Part shown: piece after piece, positions 3,573 through 46,344 of the stretch
Layout: each line of letters starts with the position of its first letter
Position numbering within the stretch: position 1 is the first letter of the stretch
Virus record (IMG/VR): IMGVR_UViG_2706795742_000001
Coordinates: 11,168 to 75,167 of that record
Source of the DNA: a virus
Taxonomy: Duplodnaviria > Caudoviricetes
Direction: 5' to 3' (one strand)
Length of the DNA stretch: 64,000 bases
Position numbers and translations under genes: made by a program
The notes under the pieces: generated by a model
The model's input: only the letters and a program-made list of their open reading frames with translations
Database searches by the model: none
Told to the model about the DNA's origin: nothing

Positions 3573-6500
3573 ATGACTCCCGCAGAGCTTAGAATTCTTG
3601 TCAGCGTTCGTGCAGCAGACGCCAAGAAAATGCTTGGTCAGCTTACTGCTGCAATGAATGCGATTAAGGCAAAAACTGCCGAGGCTAGCGCTAGTATTCG
3701 TGGATTTAACGGAACTCTCGCAAGCTCCAACGGCACAATTTCAAATACCTCCAAGAACGCTGCCGACCTGGCGGCGAATTTGTCGCGCGTGGGTAAGTCC
3801 GCGTCGGGGGTAACCAAGGTTTCCGCTTCGGCCAAGAGTGCGAATGCAGCACTGGCCGGACTGGAAAAGAACTCCATGAAGGCCGCGCAGAATCTCGCGG
3901 CAATTGATAAGGCTGCAACTCGCGCCGCCGCCGGTATTTCCCGGATTTCCAAGTCTGCACCCGAGATTAAGGCTCTTGGTGCAGCATTTAAGGGTACGGC
4001 TGCCGACATTGCAGCCTTTAATGCTGCCCTAAATAAGGCCGCAACCGCAGGAACGCGCGCAGAAAAGACCGTAGGTGCCGCAGGTGCCGCAGCAAAAGCC
4101 TCTGGTACTGCTGCCGCCGGGGCCGCAAAAGGCTGGGAAAGTATGGCGGCGGCTCAGGCCGCTTCCGCTACCAGTGCGCGCGCCGCCGCTACTGCAAATA
4201 AGGCTGCCGCTGCCGCCACTTCCACTAATGCCGCTTCCACCGCTGCCGCTTCCGCTGCACAGCTTACTTTGGCTGAGCGCGTTGCGAAGTCTAGCGAGGA
4301 AATGCGTAAGGCCGGCTCGCGCGCACAGTGGGCGGGTCGTCAGATTTCGCTCATGTTCACCGCGCCCACCGCGCTTCTTATTGGTGCTGGCACTAAGTGG
4401 ATTCTTGATCTTCAAAAGCAGCAGACTCAGCTTGCCAAGGTTTATGGTGATACGCATGATTCCGCAGCGGAACTGGAAAAGCAGCTCAATAGCTTGCAGG
4501 GGCAGTTCCGTGAAATGTCTGACGCATATGGTTTCTCTCAGGAAGAAATCACCGGAATTGGTGCCGCATGGGCACAGGCCGGAAAGAGCGGACAGGCACT
4601 AGCTGAATATACTCGGCTTTCCACCGAGGCAATGATTATCGGTGATATTACGGCCAAGCAGGCCCAGGAGTCTATGGTTGGCCTTAATTTGCAGTGGGGA
4701 CTTGCGGCAAAGCAGTCTAAAATCACTGCAACCGAAATGATGAGTATGCAGGACGCAATTGCTGCAATTAACACTGCGTCCAATCAAACTCAGGTTTCGT
4801 ACGCCGACCTTCTGACTGTTATGTCTCAGGCCGGTTCTGTTGCCAAGAATGCTGGCGTTTCCTTCAAGGAAACTCTGGCTATGGCTACTTCTATTACTCG
4901 CATTACCGGCTCGGCAAATAAGGCCGGTAACGCGCTTAAGTCGATCTTCACTAATGCCATGTTCCCGACTCGCGGGCGTGGTACCGATTTCCTTAAGCAG
5001 CTCGGTGTTGATCTTGAAAATACCGAGGATCGAGCGCTTACCGCTTCTCAGCGTATTGAGCGCGTTGCTCTGAATATGGCACGCCTGGATGAGCAGGGGC
5101 GTATTACCGCCGCCGCAGGCATCTTTACCAAGTGGCAGGTTAACGCATTCGCTCAGCTTGGCAACGATATTGACAAGGCGCGCGTTCAGCTCAATCTTTG
5201 GACCCGTGAAATTACCGGCACCGAGGTTGCTGGTAAGAATCTGTACGAAAGCCTCTCCCGGCTGGACAGTATTAAGCCTGGCTCCAACGCGGAAAAGGCA
5301 ATGCGTGCTCTTAAAATTGAGATTGACGACGCTGGTTACAAAACCATGAACGTCAATGCGAAGTTCATTCGCTTTGCGGATTCGCTTCGTGGACTTAATG
5401 ACGAGCAGCGTCGTAGCAGAATCGGTGATATTTTCGGAGAGACTCGCGTTTCTCAGATTGACGAGCTTGTAAAGAAGACCAACGAAAACACCGAGGCTCT
5501 TGGTAACTATAACCGAGAGCTTGCAACGCTTGGCGATAAGCGCAAGAACTTCGATAGCTACAAGAAGGAACTTAATACGTTCCTTGAGTCGAACCCGCAA
5601 AAGTTTAAGATTGCGGGCCAGATGATTAAGAACAGTATTATGGACGTTGTTATTGTCCTGCTGCCTTACATCATCGCCACCGCTCAGGCTATTGCGCAAA
5701 TGGCTCGCGCGTTCTCGGAAATGAATCCGACCTTGCAGAAGGTTGTCATTGGATTCATGATTTTCCTGGCCCTTGTCGGTCCTCTGGCTATTCTTATTTC
5801 TAGCTTCAAGGTTCTGTTCGGCGTTATCGGCGGCGGAATGGCTAAGCTGCTGGGATTCTTTATTGTCACCAGCAAGGGGGCTGACGGCGCAAGCAAGTCG
5901 TATTTCCGGTTCTCTGCTGCCGGTAAGAAGGCTGCCGCAGAAAACCGCGCAAGCATGACTAGCATGACCGGAATTATCCGTAGTGGATTTGCTAGCATTA
6001 TTCGTAGTGCTTTCAATTCCGCTGCCAGTTATGTTCGTGCCGCATTCCGTGGAGCCAAGGGTTCTACTCAGGCATATGCTCAGGGTGCAACTGCCACCGC
6101 TCGCGCCGTTTGGGTTAGCTCTGTTCAGGTTGTCAATAACGAAGCTGCCACCGGCGCACGTCGCGCTCAGATCGCGCTTAATACTGGTCGCACTCTTCTT
6201 CAAATTGAAAATAACACCGGAATGCTGCGACGCAATGCAGCAGGTGCAGTTAACTTCGCAATCGTTGAGGGCGAGGTTATTTCTGGTGCTCAGCGCACGG
6301 CCAATCAGTCTAAAACCGGCAAACAAATGCTTGCGCTTGAATCTGCTGACGGTCGGGCGCGACGACTCGCCAATCAGCGCGTAAACTTCGAGATTGTTTC
6401 GACCGAGCAGGTTGCTAATGCAAAGCGCGTAGCAAACCAGACTCGCAATAACGGTCAAATGCTCGCGCTGGAATCGGCTTCTGGTCGTCAGCGCCGAATG

Positions 6501-9500: not shown

Positions 9501-12500
9501 AACAACGGCATTCGTCGTATTTGGAACAACACCGCTGGCAAGGTTGGTCTGCCTGAAATGGCAGAGGTCCAGCAACTCGCAAAGGGCGGTAACGTCGCAG
9601 GCCGCGTAGTCGGACCGGGAACTGGCACTAGCGATTCCATTTTCACTAGCGCTGCACCCGGCACGGAAATCTTTACGGCGCGTGAGGTTGCAAATGCCGG
9701 TGGATTCTCCGGTTTGGAGCGACTTCTTTCTCAGCGAGGCGTGCGCGGATTTGCCGCACCTTCTGGCACTGGCGCTCCCGTTGCATTGAGTAATGGCGAA
9801 TTTGCCGCGACTCCTGCAATGGTTGCGCAGCTTGGCGGAACGAATGCTGTTAAGGCTATTCGCGCCCAGCTTGCCGGTGGCGGAATTCCTCAGCATGGTC
9901 TTGGTGATATGGTTAGCGCAGTTACTTCGCTGCCAGGAAAGGCCGTGGATAAGGTTGTCGATACCGGGCGCAGTGTTGCCGGTGAAGGCGTTGACGCTCT
10001 TATGTCCGCGCTTGAAAAGACTATTCCTGATGTTCTTACGCCTCCCGGTGGAGATATTGGCAAGCTGCCAAAGGGATTCTTTAATGCTGTTCGCGTAAAG
10101 GTCGTGGACACCATTAAGGGTCACGCGGGCGGCGGCACGGTCGCGCGCTTTGCCGGTGGCGGCACGACGTCGAGCGCGTCGCCCGCTGCCGGTGGCGCGG
10201 CGACCGGCGCGAGCGCCGGGGCCGCTGGTGCTGGCTCAGGCGGCGTCGATCTGGGAACTGGTACCGGACTCGCACAGGCTGTAGCGGGGAGCACCGACGC
10301 GGCGGCGCAAATCTGGGAAGCCTACTACCAGGAAATTGAAACCGCTCAGGTTGCCAGCAATACCGTTATGCAGACTCAGCAGCTTATGGCCGACACCGTT
10401 ATGTTGGCTCAGCAGGCTGCAAGCATTACCGGCATGACTGTTAATGCTGACACTTATCGGGCAACGGAAGGAACGAATAGTCTTCTATTCCAGCAGACTC
10501 AGGCCACCAATGACCTTGCTCATAAGGCTGTTCTCAACTCTCAGTTGAGCACCTTTACTAGCGCGCAGGGCAGTACCTGGGGAAGTTTCCGTAGTAATCT
10601 GGACAAGATCACTACGGATATGCAGGCAGACGTTACGACCAATTTCAACGAACTCGGTGCTAATATCGAGGAAGTTGTTATGCGTCAGATTACGCCTACA
10701 ATTGAAACCTTTGACCCGTTGCTCAATACTGCAATCGGCTGGTTCGGTTCCGCCTCTGATGATATTGGTCAGATGTGGGCGCAGACTTTGCCGAAGGTTC
10801 AGGACCCGACTCGCAGCATTATTAACGACGTTTACAATAACGGCGTTCGTGTTGCGTGGAGCAAGGTTCATACTTGGCTCGATTTGCCAGAACTTGAGCA
10901 GTTCACCGCAGGTTTTGCCGAGGGTGGTGCTCCCGGCTTCGGCGGCAATATGGTTCCGCTTAGCTCTCTGAGCAACCCGAATAACCCGCGTTCGATTAAG
11001 AATGGCGGACCGCTTAAGGCCGCCTCGGGTTCTCGGGACTCCACTCTTTTTGCTGGTATGCGTGGCGAATACGTAATGAGCAAAAAGATGGTCGAGGGAG
11101 CCGGTGGTATCGGTAATCTTGAGGCGTGGCGAAAGGCAGTCAATACTGGCGTTCGGCCCGTTGAAACTGGTGGCACGATTAATTTCGACGCTGTTCCAGG
11201 TTTCGCTGCCGGTGGTTTGGTTGCCCGTCCTGAGAACCAGGAAGTTCCTGGTGTTATTCAGCAGGTTCCTGAAATCCTTAAGCCGTACTACAACCGTGTT
11301 TATGATTACGGCGGTGGCGGCGAAGGCGGTCGTGGTTATGACTGCTCGGGCTGGACTGGTGCTGTTCACCAAATCCTGAATGGCGCAAGCCATGTTGGGC
11401 GTATTTGGTCCACTGAGGTTAATTTCAGTAGCTTTGGATATAAGCGCGGTAACGATGGTTACTGGTCGATGGGTGTCCATAACGGCGGCGGCGGAATGAA
11501 TTCGCACACCGCCGGTACACTTGCGGGCGTTAACTACGAATCGGGCGGCGCTCATAATACGTCAACCTGGGGCGGTCCGGCTGCCGGTACGATTAACTCG
11601 CAGTTTGAGAACCAGTATTACCTGCCGAGCCTTGGCGGAAAGTTCATTGGAACGCCGGGCGGAAATGGTATGTCCGTGGCAATTACTCCCATGTTGCTTG
11701 AAATGTGGGATAAGCACATGGACACCATTAAGCCGGGAATTGAGGGGCTTGGGCTTGGCGGAACCATTGGAAAGAATCCAATGGCCGCGTTCGACAAGTT
11801 TAATCTCCTTCGTGGAGTTGTTGAAAAGAAGGGTGAAGAAAAGGACGCAGCAGCAGCTGTTGCAGCGGCGGCTAATTACGGTCAGGGTGCGCCTGGTTCG
11901 TACGGCGGTGGCGTGGAAAGGTGGCGTTCCGTTGTTCAGGAAGCGCTGCAAATGGTGGGCCAGCCCAAGTCTTACGACGAAATTACTCTTCGTAGGATGA
12001 ACCAGGAATCCGGTGGCGATCCGCAGGCTATTAACCTGTGGGATAGCAATGCTGCCGCAGGAACTCCCTCCAAGGGCCTTATGCAGGTTATTGATCCCAC
12101 GTTCCAGGCAAATCGTCATCCGGCGCTGCCTAATAACATCTGGGACCCAATGGCTAATATCGTGGCGTCCATGCGTTATACGCTTGGTCGTTATGGTTCG
12201 CTGCCCGCTGGATACAACCGTGCTGGTGGATATGACAAGGGCGGATGGTTGGAGCCTGGCATTACTCAGGCAATTAACTTGACCGGAAAGCGTGAGGCAG
12301 TTCTCACGAATACGGACTGGAAGGCTGTTTACAAGGCTGCAATGAAGCCCGCTGTTGACGCCAAGATGATTGCCGAGGGCTATATAGCGGCGATGGAGAA
12401 AGTCTACGGAGTCAATATCAGCAAGAAGGTTGGTGACGTTCAGGCTCAGGCGGTGGAATGGGCGCTGGAAGGTCAGAATGCCACCTGGAATCCTCAGATT

Positions 12501-35907: not shown

Positions 35908-37445
35908 TTCTTATTCCTCTTTTCTTTTTCCTCCAACATAGCTTGGGTAATTGCCTTCTTGAGCAGTGGATCAGTTTCAACGATTGAATCTGCAATCTTC
36001 TGTTTGACTTCTAGAATTTCGTTAACACGATCTTCCACTGAGTCCTTGACTAGATAATCAAGAACCTGAACTGGCTGAGACTTATCAGCTCCAATTCGGT
36101 GAAGCCGGTCAATTGCCTGCTGGTTGAGTGGAGGATTAAACAGCTTGTCTAGCCGCTGGCAATACCGCGCCGCGGTCATATTCAATCCGGTACCAGCGAC
36201 CGAGTAGATACAAACAATAACACCCGGCTCTTCGTGGTCAGCCCATTCATTAACCACCTTAACTCGATCTTCTGCGGGAACGTCACCATTAAGGACGAAC
36301 ACCGGGAATGTAGCCATTTTATTGTGAATGGGAGCAAATTTACCACTGCCCATTGGCCTATTTGAGCCCTTGTTAAATGCTGCCGTGAGTCGATTAACAA
36401 ACGCTTCCTGAACACCGCGATACTGAGTGAATACCACCACTCGCTCGCCCTGTTTTACCAGGTCCACTGCGTCAAATAGTGCAGCGTCGAGCTTGTCGGA
36501 ATAGTCTTCCTTATTTTCCAGGACAGTAGCGGTTGTTCCGCAAATCTGCTTAAGTCGCAAGAATTTCGTGAGCACATTGTCGATTTCATCCGGCTCATCG
36601 TTTTCGGACCGGGTGATCTGCAAATCCTCTAGAACCTGGTCATACAGCTTCTGCTGTTTGGTATGCAGTCCGACTAGGCGCGGCGTGATCTGGACTTCCG
36701 GCAAATCAAGAACGTCTTTCTTGAGACGTCGGATCATAATTTGAGCGAGCTTGGCATTCAAGTCTTGCTCATTTTTGACTGCCACGATTTCGCGGTTTTC
36801 ATACCCGCCATAAACAGCGTAGGTATTCAGGAATCCGTAGTAGCTTCCAAATGCCGCAGGATCGACCATGCTTGCCAGCGACCAAATATCATTCACATGA
36901 TTCAGGATCGGAGAGCCGGTCAGAAAGAATCGGCGTGTGCAGGTTTCCGCAAGCGCTCGTGCCGCTTTTGTTCGCTGCGCCGAGGGATTCTTCAACATAT
37001 GAGCTTCGTCAAACAGCACAATGTCGAACTGCATACTAATAAGCTGTTCCAGGTGCGGCTTAACCTGCTCGTAGTTCATAATCAAAACTCTCGGCACGTC
37101 AAGCTGAGAGAATTGATCCAAATGCTTCTGTCGAGCGGGCGCGGGCTTATTCGGAAGAACGCTGTAAATCACGTCTCCCATGAACTTGTCGATTTCGTTT
37201 GCCCAGTTGAGTTTGAGCGTAGTCGGACAGATAACAATCATCGAGTTGCATCGGCCCATAAAAAGGTCGATACCGAATACGGTAAGGGACTGAATTGACT
37301 TTCCAAGTCCCATTTCGTCGGCGAGAATAAAACTCTGCATAGTTGCAGCCCGCCGAATTCCCTCGACCTGGTGCTCGTAATACTTAATATCGTCCTTAAT
37401 GTAAGGCTCTAGGCTCTTACGATTAGCGAGTCCAGGTGCGGTCAT
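35904..37445 (-). CDS. SNF2-family helicase
   Basis: LADEMGLGKS, DEAH, LTGSPILN, GLNMT, QAIDRLHRIG. Confidence 0.95.
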   Translation of the reverse strand: MTAPGLANRKSLEPYIKDDIKYYEHQVEGIRRAATMQSFILADEMGLGKSIQSLTVFGIDLFMGRCNSMIVICPTTLKLNWANEIDKFMGDVIYSVLPNKPAPARQKHLDQFSQLDVPRVLIMNYEQVKPHLEQLISMQFDIVLFDEAHMLKNPSAQRTKAARALAETCTRRFFLTGSPILNHVNDIWSLASMVDPAAFGSYYGFLNTYAVYGGYENREIVAVKNEQDLNAKLAQIMIRRLKKDVLDLPEVQITPRLVGLHTKQQKLYDQVLEDLQITRSENDEPDEIDNVLTKFLRLKQICGTTATVLENKEDYSDKLDAALFDAVDLVKQGERVVVFTQYRGVQEAFVNRLTAAFNKGSNRPMGSGKFAPIHNKMATFPVFVLNGDVPAEDRVKVVNEWADHEEPGVIVCIYSVAGTGLNMTAARYCQRLDKLFNPPLNQQAIDRLHRIGADKSQPVQVLDYLVKDSVEDRVNEILEVKQKIADSIVETDPLLKKAITQAMLEEKEKRNKK

Positions 37446-37463
37446 ATTAACCGTGCTCCTTTC

Positions 37464-37835
37464 TTATTCAAATCCGAGCAGAAACTTAATCAGATAATCA
37501 GGATCGACATTCATTCCTGCGTCGTGCATTCTCTGTTCAAGTCGACCCTGATACTTGCTCGCCATGAAGGTAATTGTCTTCTTGTCGTTTGCATATGGGT
37601 TCAGCATACACAACATCAAGAAAAGGTTTGCCATATCCCTTGGTGGCAATTCCTGCAACCAGTTATCAATCACACTGTTTAGTGCTTGATTTCGCATGTT
37701 CTCAAGCTCTTGCTTGTTGTGATTAATGCGAGCGGCCTCGTTCATCTTATTGAAGAACTCCGGGTCGCTGGGATCAATGAAAAACTGGTAATTGGGATCG
37801 TTCGGGTCACTCGGCATATTATTACCGTCGGTCAT
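37464..37835 (-). CDS. hypothetical protein
   Basis: 123 aa ORF. Confidence 0.7.
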   Translation of the reverse strand: MTDGNNMPSDPNDPNYQFFIDPSDPEFFNKMNEAARINHNKQELENMRNQALNSVIDNWLQELPPRDMANLFLMLCMLNPYANDKKTITFMASKYQGRLEQRMHDAGMNVDPDYLIKFLLGFE

Positions 37836-38055
37836 ATTCGTGAACCTCCACTACTCGATAAACCTTGCAAGGATTGGTTGGCTGTGCAATTCCGGCGCAG
37901 GCCGAAACAATCAAGCTATTTTCCTCTTGGACCGCGGCCTTAGCTCGGCTAATATCTACATAAGCGAGTCCTCCGATAACATCAATATCAGGCTCATGCC
38001 CAGTATCAGTATCAAGTCCGGTGACATAAGCTGCAATATAAAATTCTTCTGGCAT
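37822..38055 (-). CDS. hypothetical protein
   Basis: 77 aa ORF. Confidence 0.6.
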   Translation of the reverse strand: MPEEFYIAAYVTGLDTDTGHEPDIDVIGGLAYVDISRAKAAVQEENSLIVSACAGIAQPTNPCKVYRVVEVHEYDRR

Positions 38056-38056
38056 T

Positions 38057-38512
38057 TTAGATCAGGTCCTCATGCTTGGGGCAGTAGATGACAATTGCGG
38101 CACCGAGAAAGGTGCTTGCAGTTTCCGTGGTAAAAAGCGGTCCGTCTACGAGCACGCCCATAACCTCTTCAAGCGACGCATTTCGATCAAGTGCGCTACA
38201 GGCGTCCCGTGCGAGCGAAATGTAGTCAGTCCAGGTAACGCCTGGCTCTGTAGTAATTCCACCGTCTTCGAGAACGCTTCGGAATACCTGAGCCTTTTGG
38301 TCCGCATTCAGCATTCCGTACTGGTCGCGGACTTTCTTGGTCGTGGTGGCCGTGGTGGTTTCGACCGGCAAGACGTTGGTCTCGGGGGTTTCAGTAACCG
38401 TAACCTGACTGCTAGCGGTAGAACTATTTTCCAGAGCACTGCAAGCTGTGCCGGAGAAGATAACTGCTGCGGCAGAAATCACCGCTAGCGAAATTCGTGC
38501 TGTCTTACGCAT
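38057..38512 (-). CDS. lipoprotein with DUF732-like domain
   Basis: Signal peptide with lipobox GTAC, Thr-rich linker, F..vL...G...C..L...GAA...YCP pattern; start 38512 has GACAGG motif. Confidence 0.75.
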   Translation of the reverse strand: MRKTARISLAVISAAAVIFSGTACSALENSSTASSQVTVTETPETNVLPVETTTATTTKKVRDQYGMLNADQKAQVFRSVLEDGGITTEPGVTWTDYISLARDACSALDRNASLEEVMGVLVDGPLFTTETASTFLGAAIVIYCPKHEDLI

Positions 38513-38584
38513 TTTCTTGATCCTGTCTTGAGGAATTACTGAATTACTGTGAGCTAGTGCTGTTTTGAGAAAAAAATATAAGGG

Positions 38585-38682
38585 CAATTTAATAAAGGTC
38601 GCTCGAATAATGATCCATTCTACTGCCAATGCCCAGCAAGGATTATTCGAGCCGTTACCGCATGGCGACCTTTATTAAATTG
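38585..38682. other. long nested hairpin upstream of lipoprotein gene
   Basis: 18-bp perfect outer arms 38585-38602/38665-38682 plus inner gctcgaataat/attattcgagc; T-tract follows on - strand. Confidence 0.65.
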
Positions 38683-38686
38683 ATCC

Positions 38687-38834
38687 AAGTAATGCGTGGG
38701 TTAGAACTGCACTCCTGGAATGCACCAGGATCGTGTACCAGCCTTTAAGATACAGCTCTCATTACCGGGAATTTGCGCCCTCGCACCGGGGAGAATGCTA
38801 ATGCGTAAATCTGGGACGACCCACATTATTACTT
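38687..38834 (-). ncRNA. candidate structured RNA element, copy A
   Basis: Shares ordered blocks and stem positions with 43314-43411. Confidence 0.5.
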
Positions 38835-39498
38835 AGAACGGCAGTCCGCTACTTGCCGGTGCCGCATTATCTGCGGCGGGCGGCGCGGGCGGGCTTGCCG
38901 GTGCGCTGGCTCCCGGCGACGGCGGCGCGGGGGGCGCATTACCGGCGGGCGGGGTCGGCGGTGCGGAAGCGGGCGGCGGCGTCGGTGCAGCGGAAGACTG
39001 CCCCATTGCCGAAATACCCGAATCATCCGACTTGGCGGAATTCGTCTGACCGGAACGAACCTGCTCAGCGGTAGGAATATCGCGCTTACGTCGAGTGTCG
39101 TCAAACAGATTGGGCTGAGCGTCAACCCACTGCTGCGCGACGGCAATTTCCTCGTCAGTAAGTGCCTCCACCGTGATATACGAATTCGTCTTCGTCTTGT
39201 TTTCCTTCATGCGAAGACGAATCGGCAGGGTCTCTCCGACGTGACCATTCAGGTTGTCCCAAATGATCTCATTCATCCACATCACATGGATAAACACTTC
39301 CTGAGTAGTCAGGTCGAGAATATCCAGGTAAAGCGCCTTACCGTCACCAGCGGGAGAATACTGCGTTCGCATGTTCTCGCGCTTGTCAACGATATTCACC
39401 AGCAGAGGGTGGGCCGCTTCTGCGACATTTGCCGCCTTAAGACGATCACCCTCGATTTGCGAAGTCGGCTCAAAGTTGCCGAGCTTTCCCATTCCCAT
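38833..39498 (-). CDS. ssDNA-binding-like protein
   Basis: Beta-rich N-terminal domain, Pro/Ala-rich tail ending in LPF; AAGGAG RBS at 39498. Confidence 0.55.
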   Translation of the reverse strand: MGMGKLGNFEPTSQIEGDRLKAANVAEAAHPLLVNIVDKRENMRTQYSPAGDGKALYLDILDLTTQEVFIHVMWMNEIIWDNLNGHVGETLPIRLRMKENKTKTNSYITVEALTDEEIAVAQQWVDAQPNLFDDTRRKRDIPTAEQVRSGQTNSAKSDDSGISAMGQSSAAPTPPPASAPPTPPAGNAPPAPPSPGASAPASPPAPPAADNAAPASSGLPF

Positions 39499-39653
39499 TT
39501 TGTTTTCTCCTTGTTTCGATTTTCGTTGCCCTGTTGCAGCGGTTGGGGAACCGCTACCGCGTGGCACTGCTAACGCTACCGCGTGCTGCCTACGTTCGCA
39601 AGCGGGACTTGCCAGAACTTACGCGGGTTATCGGCGGTGCTGTGTGAGTGTAT

Positions 39654-39977
39654 TTATACGGAAGTCTTCGAGATTACATCGTTTTTAATTAACCTGACGA
39701 CCACCTCCCTGATTTGCAACAGAATACGCAGTTGTGAGTTAAGTGAGCGCATTGACTCGAAATATCCAGTCTCTAGACTGTTGAGTCTTTCCAGATCAGA
39801 AACTGTTTCATATTTCTTGTCCATGTTTTCTCTTGCGTAATTCATGGTATTTACCACCGCAGCAATTTCGGTGTCAAGCACGTCAAGAAGAATGTACAAT
39901 CTCCGAGTCTCACGCCAGCTTGCAATCTTTTTGAGGAATTTCACTCTAGACTCCGCCACTGGGTTTAAGTGCAACAA
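39654..39977 (-). CDS. coiled-coil hypothetical protein
   Basis: 107 aa ORF. Confidence 0.6.
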   Translation of the reverse strand: MLHLNPVAESRVKFLKKIASWRETRRLYILLDVLDTEIAAVVNTMNYARENMDKKYETVSDLERLNSLETGYFESMRSLNSQLRILLQIREVVVRLIKNDVISKTSV

Positions 39978-40812
39978 ATCCGGAAGACTTGCTGCCTGAC
40001 ATATTTGGAATGTTCTTCTCGTCCTTGAACTCGCTAGAAATTTTACGGGACCAATAGGTCATGTAAATCTTTCGACGGTCAAGATCGCCGTTGAATTTCG
40101 CATTCCTAGAGGAAGAAAACTCTGGCCTGGAAAATCTGGTATCGTTTTTCTGAACCATTCCCAACTTAATAGCCATAGGCCGGTAAAACAGCACTCGCTG
40201 CTTGGCATTATGTGAAAAGAACTTCTTGAACGAGGTAATGCCACTTTGGGTTAAATCCAAAATAGCTGGCACTTCATCCATGTTGTAGTCTTTTTCAACA
40301 TAGTCAAGCGGAATGATAGGAATATACCAGTGAGGCTGACACAAAGGTCCGTGCTTTCCGTCCTGAGACCACTTAGTAAATGGACAGGTTTCGCACAGTG
40401 CTTTACTTTTGTCGTTCTCTAGGTATTTTCCAAGACCAACGTCAAACTGGGTATGAGGAAAGTCATTCAGAGGATGACCAATGTCACCGTCCAAAGAAAT
40501 GCACTGCTTGCCTTTCATGGCAATTTTACCGCAGTCGGCAGCAAACGCAGAGTCGTTAAACTTGGGCCACATTTGTCGAGTCCGAATTACCGTGAGTCCA
40601 TAGACGTGAAGCTCTCGCATGGCAGTTTTTCCGGCGACTTTCAGGAATTGCGATTCCGGTCCCGACGACGAAACAAAACGACCGTGCTTATGGTCAATGT
40701 AAATCCGTTCGTACCCATAGAGGGACCGGCCATAATTTCCGCTAGTCTTCGGCTTGAATGCTGCGTTGAATTGGGGGAAAGTTTGGCTCGACAATTGGGA
40801 TGTATTCACCAT
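39946..40812 (-). CDS. Cys-containing replication/recombination-module protein (CxSxDG...CxxCP...W...G..C)
   Basis: CISLDG, CETCPFTKW...GPLC; GGAGG RBS before ATG 40812. Confidence 0.5.
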   Translation of the reverse strand: MVNTSQLSSQTFPQFNAAFKPKTSGNYGRSLYGYERIYIDHKHGRFVSSSGPESQFLKVAGKTAMRELHVYGLTVIRTRQMWPKFNDSAFAADCGKIAMKGKQCISLDGDIGHPLNDFPHTQFDVGLGKYLENDKSKALCETCPFTKWSQDGKHGPLCQPHWYIPIIPLDYVEKDYNMDEVPAILDLTQSGITSFKKFFSHNAKQRVLFYRPMAIKLGMVQKNDTRFSRPEFSSSRNAKFNGDLDRRKIYMTYWSRKISSEFKDEKNIPNMSGSKSSGFVALKPSGGV

Positions 40813-41254
40813 CAGTTCCTCCAAATCTTCCGAACTTCTTTTCATTGACTCTTTTCCTCTTCTCTCGCCTGTAAAGCTCTGGCAATCCCATAGAGAATGC
40901 TCCCGGCAAAAAGTGAGAGAATCGCTTTGGCTTTATCTCACTCTTGGCAAATCCAATTCGCTCCCATCTATCTAAAATTCCCCATACCGCACCAGAACTA
41001 CACGACTTACTATCAATTCTAGTTACTTGCTTGGCAATATTCTCCGCCGTAGGAGTCCAGTCCTTCATATGGTTTACAAACCAGTCCTTAACCACATGCT
41101 CGACAATAAGTTCGAGTTCACCGCGAGCGCGCCTATCAGAACCAGTATCTTGCAATTCTGGAATCTCTGGAACAAACAAACCATTCCAAGGCTCAGCAAG
41201 CGTCGGCATGTTGTTCTTATCGTACTTGTATTGTGGATCGGGCTTTCTAGCCAT
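40742..41254 (-). CDS. probable winged-HTH DNA-binding protein
   Basis: TAENIAKQV...SSGAVWGILDRWERIGF helix pattern. Confidence 0.45.
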   Translation of the reverse strand: MARKPDPQYKYDKNNMPTLAEPWNGLFVPEIPELQDTGSDRRARGELELIVEHVVKDWFVNHMKDWTPTAENIAKQVTRIDSKSCSSGAVWGILDRWERIGFAKSEIKPKRFSHFLPGAFSMGLPELYRREKRKRVNEKKFGRFGGTDGEYIPIVEPNFPPIQRSIQAED

Positions 41255-41573
41255 TTTTCTCACCATTCCAAAATACTAGACGACGGATATAGTTCATGGT
41301 TTCTGGATCGTTCTTGCTTTCGAGTGCTTCAAGAACTGAGTTCACATGCATATCGCATAAACCCATATACAGTGGCGCGCTAAATGCCCTGTTCTGATTC
41401 AGGTAAACGAACTTCTTCGGATTCTTGCAGTACAGCCCCTTTATTGTCTTATGGTCGCATTTTCCGTGAACAATAATCGACTTGTTCACAGCCATAATCT
41501 GAGGATGACTAGCAATCACTTGGCTATGATTTCTAAACTTTAGACCTTTGATAGCCCTAGCAAATACTCTCAC
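41247..41573 (-). CDS. hypothetical protein (C...C...CxxH)
   Basis: 108 aa ORF. Confidence 0.6.
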   Translation of the reverse strand: MRVFARAIKGLKFRNHSQVIASHPQIMAVNKSIIVHGKCDHKTIKGLYCKNPKKFVYLNQNRAFSAPLYMGLCDMHVNSVLEALESKNDPETMNYIRRLVFWNGEKNG

Positions 41574-41854
41574 TTTAGCTCCTTGCCGAATAGTTGATAA
41601 CTGAAATCTGGACCGAATTCAACTCGTCCGAGATAAATTTCTGCAATGTAAATCCTGTCACCGGGGTTCAGCTTAAGCCTCTTGTGCTTAACTTCCTCTA
41701 GCTGATTCTGAAATGCCTGTTCACAGAATTCTTCGTCTCCGAACGCAAGAATCTTTGATTCGCCAGTGATTACATTCTCTGCAATTACTCGGTGAGTATT
41801 CCGTCCGATTCTGTTTATTCCCTGTTCTGCAAGTTTTGGTGCAACCTTCGGCAT
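41570..41854 (-). CDS. hypothetical protein
   Basis: 94 aa ORF. Confidence 0.65.
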   Translation of the reverse strand: MPKVAPKLAEQGINRIGRNTHRVIAENVITGESKILAFGDEEFCEQAFQNQLEEVKHKRLKLNPGDRIYIAEIYLGRVEFGPDFSYQLFGKELK

Positions 41855-42151
41855 TTAATTCACCACCGGAATTACCTGAGTGACTGTATTGGTTATCTCG
41901 TCCGGCTGTCGCGGGCATGGCGGCATACCGAATGTGTAATACGGTTTACCGGCCAGCTTTGCGGTGAACTTCATAAGTTCCTCCATGCGCTCCTGGAACT
42001 TGGACTTGATATTCTTCGCCAGTCCACAGCGAACGCAAGCAAGAATTCCGTGGTCAGTGTCGAGCAGAATTGCTGTAGTGAAATCACAGCAATTACGGCA
42101 GTAGCTGTGGCCCACTTTTGCCGAATGAATTTCGTTCCAGTGCTTAGCCAT
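41855..42151 (-). CDS. zinc-ribbon-like hypothetical protein
   Basis: CRNC...CVRC; start reassigned to ATG 42151 overlapping upstream stop. Confidence 0.6.
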   Translation of the reverse strand: MAKHWNEIHSAKVGHSYCRNCCDFTTAILLDTDHGILACVRCGLAKNIKSKFQERMEELMKFTAKLAGKPYYTFGMPPCPRQPDEITNTVTQVIPVVN

Positions 42152-42485
42152 TAATTTCCTGCTCTTCCTGAATGATGTTCTCTGGATTGTCTTCGAGTCT
42201 GCCCGACCACAAGTGATGATCCATATTCTTCTTTGCCCTACTGAGAACTCGGTCATTAAGGTCTAGCTCTCGCTCTAGGTGTCGTGAGCACCAATAGAAT
42301 TGCTTGCCGCTTTCAGTGACATACCGAAATGCTGATCGGTTTCCACACTGGTCAATTCCACCGGCATTTGTCCTGTACTCGCATTGCGGAAGTCTCGGAC
42401 CCCTAACCTTGCTTACCCACGGATGGGAGCTTAGGTATTCGTCCCTTGACGAGATATTCAGGCTCTTGTTGAATTTGTCAGCCAT
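42144..42485 (-). CDS. hypothetical protein (C...C...CxxH)
   Basis: 113 aa directly after recombinase stop. Confidence 0.65.
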   Translation of the reverse strand: MADKFNKSLNISSRDEYLSSHPWVSKVRGPRLPQCEYRTNAGGIDQCGNRSAFRYVTESGKQFYWCSRHLERELDLNDRVLSRAKKNMDHHLWSGRLEDNPENIIQEEQEING

Positions 42486-43283
42486 TTAGAAATTCACCGC
42501 CTCGTGCGCCGCAGCGGTATTAACGCCAATGTATTCCTGAGTCTGACTCGGAGAAGCATGGCCGAGGGTTCGCTGAACCAAGATAATATCCTTGGTCTTT
42601 TCGTAAAGCTCGGTGGCGAATGTTGCGCGCAGATCGTGCGAGGCAATGTTTTTGCCGTCGGGATGGTACACGTTGCAAAGATTGAATTGTCCGGTAATCA
42701 GATTCCGGGCCTGACGATCGGAAATATGAACGAACTTGGCTCGATCATTCGTCGGCATGTTTTCGATAAGCACGGCGGCAAGCTCTGCACTCACCGGGAT
42801 ATTGCGCGTCTTTCCGCCCTTGCCGGTGATAACAAGCTCATTTGTGCGCCGGTCCCAATCGCACGGCGCGACGCTCAGGGACTCGCTCACCCGCGTACCG
42901 GCCAGCGCGCCGAGCGCGATCAGTACCCGCGTGCGCGGGTCCGCAGTGCCCGCCAGAACGCCGCGTACCGTGCGAATTCCTCCCGGTACGGGGTGAGGTC
43001 GGGGAGCGCCGACGCGCGGCAGACGGTAGCCGTCCAGCGCCGTCGCGGCGTCGTGGTCGGCGCGGTAGCCGGACCAGCTTTTGAGAGCGGCGGCACGGGA
43101 TTTCATTACCGACGGGCTTGCGCCAGACTTCTTGGAATCCATGATGTATTCCAGCGGGTCGGTGAAATTGGAATTCAGGAACGCGCGAATATTCCGCGAG
43201 TAAACCTTAATCGTATTCGTGCTCTTTCCCTGCCGTGCAAGATGATTCTCGAACTGATCCAGAATGGCTACCGTGTTCTGCAT
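42486..43283 (-). CDS. XerC/D-like tyrosine recombinase
   Basis: GTRVSE (R), GKGGKTR (K), HDLRATFAT (HxxR), LGH, Y; SAM-like N-terminal domain, no arm-binding domain. Confidence 0.92.
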   Translation of the reverse strand: MQNTVAILDQFENHLARQGKSTNTIKVYSRNIRAFLNSNFTDPLEYIMDSKKSGASPSVMKSRAAALKSWSGYRADHDAATALDGYRLPRVGAPRPHPVPGGIRTVRGVLAGTADPRTRVLIALGALAGTRVSESLSVAPCDWDRRTNELVITGKGGKTRNIPVSAELAAVLIENMPTNDRAKFVHISDRQARNLITGQFNLCNVYHPDGKNIASHDLRATFATELYEKTKDIILVQRTLGHASPSQTQEYIGVNTAAAHEAVNF

Positions 43284-43313
43284 TTCTTTTCCTGTCTGTG
43301 AGTTAGTGCTGTA

Positions 43314-43411
43314 CTTAAGGTGGGTTGGGATTATGCTCTAGCCATTCCTGACTAGCGTTCACTCTGCCTTTACGCTCATCCCCATTACCGGCAGGACGAC
43401 CCATTCTTAAG
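43314..43411 (-). ncRNA. candidate structured RNA element, copy B
   Basis: Shares ordered blocks and stem positions with 38687-38834; GGAA tetraloop hairpin on - strand. Confidence 0.5.
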
Positions 43412-43419
43412 ATTTTGTT

Positions 43420-43800
43420 TTACTTCTCGAACTCCACCCGAACGGGTGTATGGTCATCGGGAATATCGTCCGGGTTTTCGTCCCCCATGACCAGGATTAC
43501 CGGCTTATCCTCCGGTAGCGCGTCCATCATCGAACGGATACCTTCTGCCTTTTTCTCGTCCGTGAAGTTCTGTGGACCGATTTCCCAGTCTTCCTTTTCT
43601 CGGTCCATCATTTCGCTCATGATTTCCATGAACTCCGGTGTGCTCTTTTCCTTGAGAGCATTTGCCATGCTCTCTTGGCCGAATTCGTGAGTCCAGATTG
43701 GACGCTCCATGATTTCCTCCGCGTACCTGTGGAATACGTCGAAGTCACAGAGCATGTATCCGGTAAACGCGGAAAGTACCGCGCCTTCGCGTCGTTTCAC
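43420..43800 (-). CDS. acidic hypothetical protein
   Basis: 126 aa, GTG start with GACAGGAG upstream. Confidence 0.65.
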   Translation of the reverse strand: MKRREGAVLSAFTGYMLCDFDVFHRYAEEIMERPIWTHEFGQESMANALKEKSTPEFMEIMSEMMDREKEDWEIGPQNFTDEKKAEGIRSMMDALPEDKPVILVMGDENPDDIPDDHTPVRVEFEK

Positions 43801-44126
43801 TTTTCGTTCTCCTGTCGGTATTTTGCGAGTTCCCGGCGATCCTTTTCCATTCGCCTGGAAATGTCCCGCATGTGAGTAAGCCGTTCGTTTTCTCGGGGCG
43901 TGAGTTCTCCCAGCTCGTTGTACTGAACCAAATCCTTGTCGCCGATGTAGAACATGCCGGGATTTTCGGCGTCATCCAAGTGATCGAGGTAATCGTTCAA
44001 TGCGGCGTGCAGGAACTTTCGATCTTCACGGGAAACCTTGTGATTCTTGAGGTTCACGCAAATGTCGCTGTGAGCCTGCTCGTACTGGATTTCCGCGCAA
44101 ACGTGAGTGTTCTTGTCGTCGCTCAT
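43797..44126 (-). CDS. hypothetical protein
   Basis: 109 aa, GACAGG upstream. Confidence 0.7.
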   Translation of the reverse strand: MSDDKNTHVCAEIQYEQAHSDICVNLKNHKVSREDRKFLHAALNDYLDHLDDAENPGMFYIGDKDLVQYNELGELTPRENERLTHMRDISRRMEKDRRELAKYRQENEK

Positions 44127-44255
44127 TGATAAATCCCTGTCTCTTGATTTTGCTCAGTCTTGCCTGTCTGGCCGTCCTCCATGCCAGTCCCTAAAGGCTA
44201 GCATGATTCCCCTTTAACTCGCAACAGTCCCCGCGAACTCGCGCGTTCGTGCAGG

Positions 44256-45122
44256 TCAGCGCCCGTTCCAGCCAAGCTCCACGGCGTCGGCGGGGCCGAG
44301 CGCCGCGTGAGCGAGCACGTCCGGCGTCAGGCCGTGGGAGAGGTAGGCAGAGGCTAGGCGACGTAAAAGGGAATTCTCGTCAGTGTTATTTGCACCGGGA
44401 TTAAACGTGTCTTCCATATCCAGAGTAGAATCAGTGATGGTCTTTTTAATTTCACCAAAATCAATCTTCTCTGACTTGAACCAGTTAATCCAGCACAACC
44501 TAATCTGATTAAGGGTCATGGGATATTGCACGGTACTTGCTGCAATTTCATGGACTGCATTCAGATTGTCTGTGTACGAATACTGAACAGTGTCAAAACT
44601 GCCGTGCTCAGTGACATTAATGTTAATTGGCACAAAGATTCCAATGGTAGGAAATACGGGCAACATGAAATGGCCTTCTATTGTCATTTTTGCAAACTCC
44701 CGAGAGTTCATAAGCACGGGCCAGATTTTATTGTCCCATACCACATTTTCGTTGGGGCTACAAGGAAGTAAGTCCGGCCTATTCCTGATCCAATCGGAAA
44801 ATTGGAACATTCCAAAGTCTCCGGTAACGGGACACAACTTATCGGTGTCACTTACGTCATCGTGATCTGTTGAAAGAATTACATTGCACAAGCCAACCGG
44901 GCCGTAGCGTACATGAATATAGAAGTCCTCCTTGATTATTCTCATGTTTGATTCTTCTAGCTCAGACTCGAAATTGCATGAGAAAAAACTACCGGGCATA
45001 AAAGTCGGCGAAGCACCAGGATAAACATGGTCCACGATCACGTCCGGAAAAACCGGAGACAGGTCACCCTGCTCCACTCCTGAAAATAGAACCTCTTCCA
45101 CTTCGTTGATTATATCGTCCAT
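44256..45122 (-). CDS. hypothetical protein
   Basis: 288 aa, GGAG RBS. Confidence 0.75.
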   Translation of the reverse strand: MDDIINEVEEVLFSGVEQGDLSPVFPDVIVDHVYPGASPTFMPGSFFSCNFESELEESNMRIIKEDFYIHVRYGPVGLCNVILSTDHDDVSDTDKLCPVTGDFGMFQFSDWIRNRPDLLPCSPNENVVWDNKIWPVLMNSREFAKMTIEGHFMLPVFPTIGIFVPININVTEHGSFDTVQYSYTDNLNAVHEIAASTVQYPMTLNQIRLCWINWFKSEKIDFGEIKKTITDSTLDMEDTFNPGANNTDENSLLRRLASAYLSHGLTPDVLAHAALGPADAVELGWNGR

Positions 45123-45124
45123 TT

Positions 45125-45508
45125 TTACTCCGTTTCTATCATATCTAGCAACTTGAACATATCAATGACGCGAGCCAGTCTTCCCGCGTCATTATCTAAT
45201 GGCGGCTCCTTTGGAATACCCACCAAAAAATGGGCTGGTTTTACTTGAACAGGCTTGTCATTATTGTCTTCCTGCTCAGAACCCCCAAATTCCGCACTAT
45301 TTACTTGAACAGGCTCAGACTTACTGGTCTCAGTGACAAAAGACCTGTCACCGAAACGGGACTGGCCTTTCGCCGGCGCGGGAGCGTCTGTTTTCTTTTT
45401 GCGTGAAGACTTCGGCGTGCCTGGTTTCCTTTTCTCTGATACAGACTCTTCCAGTGCTCCGCCGAAAAGATCACTCACAGTACGCTCCGTGACATGAATT
45501 GCACTCAT
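45125..45508 (-). CDS. low-complexity hypothetical protein
   Basis: 127 aa with duplicated PVQV. Confidence 0.65.
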   Translation of the reverse strand: MSAIHVTERTVSDLFGGALEESVSEKRKPGTPKSSRKKKTDAPAPAKGQSRFGDRSFVTETSKSEPVQVNSAEFGGSEQEDNNDKPVQVKPAHFLVGIPKEPPLDNDAGRLARVIDMFKLLDMIETE

Positions 45509-45641
45509 ATCCCGACCACTTAATCATAATAAACTCATGCGCACAATCGGGATCACCGCCCCAAATTGGAGTAGTTCGAGGATTCTTGCGACGCTCTACT
45601 ATATATCCCGGAATCTTTGGTTCTGGGATAGAACTAGCCAT
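45471..45641 (-). CDS. small Cys-rich protein (56 aa)
   Basis: MASSIPEP...CAH...CNSCH..C; start overlaps upstream gene end. Confidence 0.5.
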   Translation of the reverse strand: MASSIPEPKIPGYIVERRKNPRTTPIWGGDPDCAHEFIMIKWSGYECNSCHGAYCE

Positions 45642-46344
45642 TTGCAAGAACCTCCCGAGCCTCCTCCTCGGTCACGCCGAAAGTGCTAACGATCTGCTTA
45701 ATGTCGAATCCACCGGAATGCGCAGCACGAATAGCGATTGCCGTTCCCTCGTTAACACCAGATGAGACAGGAGCGCTCTTTTTCGAGGGCGCGAGGGTCG
45801 AAGTTTTCGGTGCCACAGGGTTTTTCGGCTGGGCAGTATTCTTCTGGGTTACTGGTCGGCCAGGGACAGTTCCTGTGGCGGCAATATGCAATGCCTCCCC
45901 GCTGACCTGCCCCATAAAACCCGGCGTGTCCGGTGCCGCCTCTCCGAGCTTTTTTGCCTGGTATCGCTTGACGCCGAGCGCGACAACCTGATCCGAATTC
46001 TCGAAAAATGGTGCGCAAGCAATCTTAATTGCCTCTGCCAGCCCACGACCAATTGCGGTCTTTTCGGTTCGCTGCAACTTGTCGTCAAGCCATTCAATTC
46101 GAGTCTGGTCAACCAGGTCGCCCTCTTCGTTATTGCTTGCACCCTGCCAGGTCATGGCCAGCTCGATATACTTATCGAGTTCAAGCCACATCTGCTGAAT
46201 AATGGTCGGCGCGCTCATATTTCGTCTCCTGTCGTGGAAAAAGTCTATGTGATCTTTGAACATACTGCATTGATAACTGGGACTGGTGTCCCAGTCTGCA
46301 CGCCATTTGCAGACTGGGCACTCAATCTGAACCGGAACGGCCAT
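45634..46344 (-). CDS. hypothetical protein with N-terminal CxxC and C-terminal HTH-like end; second in-frame start at 46218
   Basis: TAATG coupling at 46344; GACAGGAG before ATG 46218. Confidence 0.65.
   Translation of the reverse strand: MAVPVQIECPVCKWRADWDTSPSYQCSMFKDHIDFFHDRRRNMSAPTIIQQMWLELDKYIELAMTWQGASNNEEGDLVDQTRIEWLDDKLQRTEKTAIGRGLAEAIKIACAPFFENSDQVVALGVKRYQAKKLGEAAPDTPGFMGQVSGEALHIAATGTVPGRPVTQKNTAQPKNPVAPKTSTLAPSKKSAPVSSGVNEGTAIAIRAAHSGGFDIKQIVSTFGVTEEEAREVLANG

Follow-up and report, generated by a model that had tools for sequence, protein, structure and literature searches.

A probable new family of pseudoknotted RNA elements in phages of Gordonia

We analysed a 64,000-nucleotide (nt) stretch of a Caudoviricetes genome, here called the window (positions 11,168 to 75,167 of the 75-kb virus record IMGVR_UViG_2706795742_000001 of IMG/VR), and found on its minus strand two copies of an intergenic element, E1, and one copy of a sister element, E2. 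As judged from comparison among phage genomes, E1 and E2 very probably represent a real and new family of structured RNAs. By sequence, the window is a GordTnk2-like Gordonia phage, since the 5.3 kb around the elements has 97% identity to Gordonia phage GordTnk2 and 95.5% identity to GordDuk1. Phage RNAs known to act via their fold are very few, and RNA-level control in actinobacteriophages is almost uncharted.

Fold and conservation of the two elements

An earlier note, made from the letters of the window, had described two RNA-like copies with compensatory stems, and this description held on inspection. In both copies four words (GGGUCGUCC, CCGGUAAUG, UAAAGGC, and AACCCA) stand in identical order, and P2, the outer stems, and the GGAA hairpin of copy B are all present and can pair (Table 1). 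Without mismatch, GGGTCGTCC occurs at exactly two sites in the 64 kb (38814-38822 and 43394-43402); each is followed by CCGGTAATG (38760-38768 in copy A and 43383-43391 in copy B), with TAAAGGC next and AACCCA closing the element. The variable insert measures 45 nt in copy A and 2 nt in copy B, a small correction to the 43 and 2 nt given before. In copy A, a 40-nt hairpin domain (38771-38810, minus strand), closed by AUUU/AAAU, interrupts the 5′ strand of the pseudoknot, whereas this strand is uninterrupted in the other E1 lineages. Two variants in this insert found in metagenomes (38775 and 38783) preserve its inner stem via G.U pairs.

Homologues of E1 were detected by BLAST and pattern scans in GordDuk1, GordTnk2, the Orchid group (Orchid, PatrickStar, Kampe, RobinSparkles, and Gibbles), and GMA2. 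The comparison therefore covers four lineages (copy A, copy B, Orchid, and GMA2), whose helices were checked with a hand-guided script since MAFFT could not align across the 45-nt insert. All four retain the core words, while the sequences of P1, P2, and P3 are unrelated and yet pair, in line with the compensatory stems claimed from the two window copies. For example, copy B of GordDuk1 carries a different P3 hairpin, 27 nt longer, which still pairs, and metagenome relatives show a change from G.U to A-U in P2 and from C-G to U.G in the insert hairpin. The ACG and GCA motifs, also proposed as conserved, are kept in the window copies but not in all homologues, as GMA2 differs.

The E1 lineages share a 5-bp pseudoknot, in which GGCWG, a part of the word UAAAGGC, is the partner of the strand just 3′ of GGGUCGUC(C). 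The pairs are CUGCC/GGCAG in copy B, CAGUC/GGCUG in GMA2, CA(U)GCC/GGCUG in Orchid, and CAG[insert]UC/GGCUG in copy A. The sole variable letter of GGCWG changes together with its partner, U-A versus A-U between lineages, which suggests that the covariation is real, four lineages being too few for a statistical statement. The folding energies of the single sequences are unremarkable (z of -1.3 to -2.1), and the support for E1 thus comes from comparison rather than from thermodynamics.

The sister element directly after copy A gave a larger comparison. Thirteen E2 sequences, drawn from about 10 lineages, were aligned, and the alignment speaks for P1, P2, P3a, and, as a fourth helix, a pseudoknot in which CUCGC pairs with GCGAG in the P3a loop. 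In this alignment 89% of cells are paired, as compared to 29-46% with slid partners, and both sides have changed in 14 pairs. The covariation score is 0.439 versus 0.211 for shuffled alignments, and none of 500 shuffles reached 0.439. The pseudoknot itself covaries, with CUUGC/GCAGG in GMA6, one additional C-G pair in Apricot, and CCAUGC/GCAU(U)GG in the window. RNAalifold independently recovered P1, an 11-bp P2, and P3a, with 13 of 23 pairs compensatory, as well as an invariant CG-GUAA-CG mini-hairpin. The E2 of the window matches the E2 covariance model R1 at 38588-38679 with 64.9 bits (E of 1e-17, the E-values of such home-made models being rough); a U-rich tract lies 3′ of it. In Orchid, an E2-type element likewise stands immediately 3′ of E1.

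E1 and E2 are probably two subtypes of one family. The order of parts is common to both: P1, GGUCG, a pseudoknot strand, GGUAA(Y/A)G, P2, a loop strand of the form UA..GGC/GCG.., P2′, 1-2 nt, and P1′. In the shared plan, the junction strand forms a pseudoknot of 5-6 bp with the UA(A)(A)GGC.. or UAGGCGAG loop, and the invariant (C)GGUAA(Y/A)G is followed by a long P2 and then by variable peripheral hairpins. Cross-matches between the models are weak. Model R1 of E2 aligns end to end with E1 copy B at 43314-43410 (15.5 bits, a rough E of about 0.04), and the E1 model matches E2 of the window (17.2 bits) and of Chidiebere (16.7 bits). For comparison, E1 model R2 matches copy A at 38702-38768 with 20.8 bits.

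Table 1. Positions in the window of the elements, their parts, and the flanking features; helices are given as 5′ strand with 3′ strand
Feature	Position	Strand	Remarks
E1 copy A	38834..38687	-	148 nt
Copy A outer P1	38834-38828 with 38693-38687	-	AAGUAAU/AUUACUU
Copy A P1 core	38822-38819 with 38701-38698	-	GGGU with ACCC
Copy A pseudoknot 5′ strand	38813-38811 and 38770-38769	-	CAG and UC, split by hairpin domain 38810-38771
Copy A pseudoknot 3′ strand	38743-38739	-	GGCUG
Copy A GGUAAUG	38766-38760	-	
Copy A P2	38759-38753 with 38709-38703	-	AGAGCUG/CAGUUCU
Copy A P3	38730-38725 with 38718-38713	-	
E1 copy B	43411..43314	-	98 nt
Copy B outer P1	43411-43406 with 43319-43314	-	CUUAAG/CUUAAG
Copy B P1 core	43403-43399 with 43325-43321	-	UGGGU with ACCCA
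Copy B pseudoknot	43394-43390 with 43368-43364	-	CUGCC with GGCAG
Copy B GGUAAUG	43389-43383	-	
Copy B P2	43382-43378 with 43331-43327	-	GGGAU/AUCCC
Copy B P3	43355-43349 with 43344-43338	-	CUAGUCA-GGAA-UGGCUAG, loop GGAA
E2	38681..38586	-	96 nt, directly after copy A
E2 P1	38681-38666 with 38601-38586	-	
E2 GGUCG	38670-38666	-	
E2 pseudoknot	38665-38660 with 38632-38626	-	
E2 GGUAACG	38659-38653	-	
E2 P2	38651-38642 with 38611-38602	-	
E2 P3a	38638-38634 with 38625-38621	-	
Leader word ACAGCACTAGCTCACAG	38547..38563	-	5′ of the DUF732 ribosome-binding site
Leader word ACAGCACTAACTCACAG	43296..43312	-	Adjoins the 3′ side of copy B, 5′ of the integrase ribosome-binding site
Gene upstream of copy A	38833..39567	-	Pro/Ala-rich, 244 aa, without Pfam family
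Gene downstream of copy A	38057..38512	-	DUF732 protein, 151 aa; Pfam PF05305, E 2e-14
Gene upstream of copy B	43420..43800	-	DUF7736 protein, 126 aa
Gene downstream of copy B	42486..43283	-	Tyrosine recombinase/integrase, 265 aa; Pfam PF00589, E 3e-17

Distribution and gene context

The statement of the earlier note that E1 does not match the cores of hammerhead, twister, pistol, HDV, or common riboswitches was borne out by the catalogue search. Rfam 15 (4227 models) gave no match at gathering score in the whole window, none at E<=10 over 38400-43700, and none at E<=1 over nine homologous loci; the models for hammerhead, twister, twister-sister, pistol, hatchet, and HDV-like ribozymes and for riboswitches did not match the elements. 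ARAGORN found no tRNA or tmRNA gene in the window, and the motif is not described in the literature that we searched.

A BLAST search of the elements against 50,697 phage records placed E2 in 55 of them, 54 being Gordonia phages, and showed no homologues in Mycobacterium or Rhodococcus phages. Among the carriers are Jumbo, the Woes and Chidiebere groups, Stormageddon, DumpTruck, GMA6, and Apricot; in all, the Gordonia records number about 50 and come from at least nine genera. Model searches of the whole records of Orchid, GMA2, Jumbo, Woes, and Chidiebere added one new E2, that of GMA2 (NC_070761, 100541-100638; about 1490-1587 of our locus L336, with the element on the minus strand); two weak matches in coding regions were discounted. 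Each phage carries one to three elements: an E1-E2 tandem and a lone E1 in the GordTnk2 group, an E1-E2 tandem in Orchid, E1 and E2 at a distance of 38 kb in GMA2, and a lone E2 in the others. In GMA2, E2 lies behind a promoter-like sequence, with 12 nt between it and AAGGAGG, the ribosome-binding site of an open reading frame (ORF) of 115 aa.

Searches beyond the cultured phages were negative. Pattern scans of IMG/VR and JGI metagenomes revealed no E1 outside cultured Gordonia phages, the other matches being chance, and a scan of IMG/VR for the E2 loop word gave four additional loci, all of them chance. In a scan of 185,579 genomes (one per species) for the E2 word, all 138 matches inspected, among the matches listed, were chance, which does not prove absence from bacteria. 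No E2 was found in a sample of 151 genomes of the taxonomic order to which an Actinoplanes genome belongs (Mycobacteriales in GTDB, an order that also includes Gordonia); one weak hit lay antisense in a gene read as that of a ribosomal protein. True copies thus appear to occur in cultured Gordonia phages only, with the limit that sequence-level searches would miss very divergent relatives. The family would then be restricted to the phages of one host genus and yet be spread over many unrelated lineages.

In the window, E1 and E2 are intergenic within the replication-gene region, on the minus strand that carries all genes near them. The TAA stop codon of the Pro/Ala-rich gene lies 1 nt ahead of the outer stem of copy A, and that of the DUF7736 gene lies 8 nt 5′ of copy B, which abuts the integrase gene on its other side (also annotated as integrase in GordTnk2 and GordDuk1). 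Wherever the locus is annotated, the element points in the direction of its neighbouring genes, and its position was read as intra-operon at all loci. It starts within about 20 nt of the upstream stop codon at 11 of 14 loci, which may be meaningless in compact genomes, and the next start codon is 20-40 nt away in about half of the loci. At most copies, no promoter or terminator belonging to the element itself could be recognised. A hairpin of 16-17 bp follows the element in Jumbo and at locus L192, E2 standing in both between a stop codon and this long hairpin, and A- and U-tracts flank P1 in copy A and Orchid.

The proposal that the element controls specifically the lipoprotein and recombinase genes finds no support in this wider context. 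The downstream genes are unrelated: besides DUF732 and tyrosine integrase genes, the family precedes genes for a DNA methylase, small hypothetical proteins, and a 545-aa protein, and a promoter-like site or a long hairpin sometimes intervenes. No expression platform overlapping P1 was seen. In minimum-energy folds of element plus leader at seven loci, the element stayed mostly intact and no helix competed with P1, although such folds cannot exclude one.

A 17-nt leader word, ACAGCACTA(G/A)CTCACAG, occurs exactly twice in the window, with 0.09 occurrences expected by chance. Both E1 copies precede it, as the note had said; copy B does so directly, whereas copy A is 124 nt away with E2, which the note had not recognised, between them. 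E1, the leader word, and a similar ribosome-binding region thus form a cassette before two different genes, which suggests a duplicated 5′ regulatory module with E2 inserted into or lost from one copy. The word, compared at the two window sites and at locus L163 (10896-10912), is unstable and lineage-specific. In GordDuk1 the one at copy A reads ACAGCCCCCACTCACAG, one metagenome relative has indels in it, and Orchid and GMA2 are without it.

Candidate functions

The earlier note had suggested a ribozyme, a processing signal, or a riboswitch. A conserved structured RNA with compensatory helices on the gene strand agrees with our results, and the riboswitch has become the least favoured of the three. 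In our broadest reading, to which we give somewhat less than even weight, E1 and E2 would be a new functional RNA class, either a self-cleaving ribozyme or an RNA that reprograms the Gordonia transcription machinery in the manner of the put RNAs, used by many unrelated phages to process or push through early messages. Either outcome would add a class to a short list and open a way into the early gene expression of phages that serve in foam control and in teaching collections.

Among single mechanisms, our first choice, held tentatively, is a cis-acting RNA with antitermination of the put or EAR type. We assume that the elements would be transcribed as part of the early, polycistronic messages of the neighbouring genes. 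The RNA would then act through its shape on a host-specific macromolecule, most plausibly the transcribing Gordonia RNA polymerase. Bound in cis, it would let the polymerase carry on through the operon past later stop signals, a mode of action known from the put RNAs of coliphage HK022 and from EAR of Bacillus. In this picture it would serve operons in general and would not be a sensor for either the lipoprotein or the integrase gene in particular. A host-specific partner is proposed because the family is spread over many unrelated phages of one host genus and has strictly conserved exposed nucleotides. Action through shape on the host is favoured by the lack of a fixed gene partner and of a visible expression platform, and by the long hairpins or U-tracts that follow some copies (Jumbo, L192, Orchid, and copy A); put- or EAR-like action comes first because the elements lie in sense orientation inside operons and hairpins are sometimes found after them.

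The put RNAs (putL and putR) are reportedly cis-acting phage RNAs that stand as two related copies per genome in early transcription units, have no dedicated gene partner, and are specific to the host RNA polymerase (King et al. 1996; Sen et al. 2001). The family would resemble them in these respects. The differences are that a put RNA has two simple stem-loops in about 70 nt, no pseudoknot, and a position just after promoters, whereas our elements have three to four helices and a pseudoknot, share no sequence with put, and lie mostly between genes after stop codons. The second precedent, EAR (eps-associated RNA) of the Bacillales, is a processive antiterminator, an intergenic, intra-operon sense-strand RNA that antiterminates at distal terminators (PMC7858274). 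E1 and E2 would resemble it as structured sense RNAs in an intergenic gap within an operon; EAR, however, is chromosomal and tied to polysaccharide operons, whereas the family here is found only in phages, without fixed neighbours and without a match in Rfam.

Several observations weigh against antitermination. Gene exchange between phages with a common host might be all that lies behind the host restriction, and the fold, a pseudoknot with three helices, is unlike the two stem-loops of put and matches nothing in Rfam, which presumably includes an EAR model. At locus L202 (IMGVR_UViG_2602041884_000001), a near-consensus promoter of the form TTGACA-17-TACTAT with a TG extension (10/12; 5401-5429, minus strand) lies between E2 and the next gene, so that E2 closes a transcription unit instead of heading it; antitermination there would serve no purpose unless read-through were useful. 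The hairpins of L192 and Jumbo were not called in a strict terminator scan. G.U outnumbers A.C in the helices by only 14 to 9, a weak asymmetry, and the element is therefore assigned to the gene strand mainly because of its constant co-orientation with genes.

A new class of small self-cleaving ribozyme with two subtypes, cutting polycistronic phage messages between genes, is unlikely but is the strongest competitor to antitermination. The elements resemble small phage ribozymes (twister, twister-sister, pistol, hatchet, hammerhead, and HDV-like) in their size of 90-150 nt, a pseudoknot, about 25 invariant junction and loop nucleotides, and variable peripheral stems. They also occur in one to three copies per genome and in head-to-tail tandems of different subtypes without a fixed gene partner, and an invariant UA stands before the 3′ strand of the pseudoknot in both subtypes. 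Such a genomic signature reportedly led Weinberg et al. (2015) to twister-sister, pistol, and hatchet, and the copy numbers, mixed tandems, and lack of gene association fit a ribozyme equally well. However, no ribozyme model of Rfam matches, and the pairing of the post-P1 junction with the loop of an inner hairpin is unlike the topology of HDV or pistol. Known small ribozymes span many hosts, and a self-contained catalyst does not explain a family found only in Gordonia phages.

Rather unlikely, in our view, is a stable non-coding RNA, either freed from the operon transcript or with a promoter to itself, that would act in trans on a Gordonia protein as its decoy or sponge. It would fit both the restriction to one host genus and the strongly conserved exposed loops, and some loci look like small-RNA genes, with E2 of L192 and Jumbo placed before the long hairpin and the GMA2 elements behind promoter-like sequences. 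The scarcity of such signals at most copies speaks against it, as does the absence of complementarity to or mimicry of 16S rRNA: in local alignments of nine elements with both strands of an actinobacterial 16S rRNA, scores were within the range of shuffles. GUCG..AAC..GGUAAC and GGCUGGUUCAC resemble the 3′ end of 16S rRNA, but their alignment statistics did not exceed those of shuffled sequences, and 16S rRNA mimicry or antisense action was rejected.

We also see little probability in a stability or processing module, whose knotted fold would block host exoribonucleases (RNase J and PNPase) or serve as a site for a host endonuclease, so that the half-lives of cistrons differ. The intercistronic position right after stop codons, the compact pseudoknot closed by a long P1, and the tandem arrangement, which is also found in viral exonuclease-resistant RNAs, are consistent with it. 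A simple hairpin would nevertheless suffice for 3′ protection, leaving the extensive sequence conservation unexplained, and RNase J and PNPase are common to all actinobacteria, so that homologues would be expected in the Mycobacterium and Rhodococcus phages, where none was seen.

A riboswitch, in which a small-molecule aptamer controls the downstream gene, is quite improbable. The conserved, covarying pseudoknot core is aptamer-like, and preQ1-II, SAM-II, and ZTP aptamers likewise combine a compact pseudoknot with unpaired nucleotides that are invariant, at times a short way 5′ of a ribosome-binding site. Such a site follows several copies at a distance of 10-40 nt (GMA2 E2, Woes, Chidiebere, Stormageddon, and copy B), tandem aptamers are known, and the cassette of E1, leader, and ribosome-binding site looks duplicated. 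It is nonetheless unlikely that the lipoprotein and integrase genes are controlled by a metabolite riboswitch, because the downstream genes share no function or pathway, the folds with the leader show no expression platform or alternative pairing of P1, and no copies were found in the bacterial genomes searched, among the matches listed. The promoter or long hairpin that intervenes at some loci also speaks against a riboswitch, and the lack of an Rfam match distinguishes the elements from known aptamers.

Very improbable is a DNA-level feature (a recombination or cassette-boundary site, or an integrase target) or a chance resemblance: copy B adjoins the integrase gene and elements border small accessory genes (DUF732, lipoproteins), so that conserved cores of 20-25 nt could be crossover points between unrelated phages, but pairing maintained via two-sided changes, including the pseudoknot, points to a fold selected in single-stranded form, the elements are always oriented like the genes, the Orchid element is 4.5 kb from the integrase gene, and chance is excluded by the word counts and the E2 covariation statistics.

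Whichever mechanism applies, the family is compact, strongly conserved, pseudoknotted, and often tandem, and it is carried by cultured, genetically tractable Gordonia phages of at least nine genera, which makes it directly testable. If it is a mere stability element, it would still provide a useful annotation for about 50 genomes with empty gaps or an over-extended ORF, such as that of gp57 in Apricot.

Coding potential and neighbouring sequence

The E2 of Apricot (NC_048018, about 36873-36970; 1192-1289 of locus L327) scores 83 bits and lies inside the last ~75 codons of gp57, which is annotated as a 236-aa 'DNA repair protein' and reads as 241 aa from an upstream ATG in our ORF scan. This GC-rich ORF may be over-extended, or E2 may be tolerated in a coding tail.

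A reading frame is open through E1 in both window copies, with ATG-initiated small ORFs of 30 and 45 codons (43324-43405 and 38702-38826, minus strand) that end near the 3′ end of the element. These are probably not genes. Stop-codon read-through or a small peptide was rejected, since the frames differ across the conserved core, copy B of GordDuk1 has an internal stop, and Orchid and GMA2 are without the ATG.

Within the Pro/Ala-rich gene upstream of copy A, contigs of four metagenomes break at 38896-38993 or continue into unrelated sequence, with many loose contig ends and one strand-switch joint. The stretch is GC-rich and of low complexity and resembles either a variable region or a breakpoint of assembly. 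Over 36000-46000, terminator-like hairpins are found at about twice the shuffled frequency (21 versus 11.4 +/- 3.3), eight of them on the gene strand inside the element-bearing operon.

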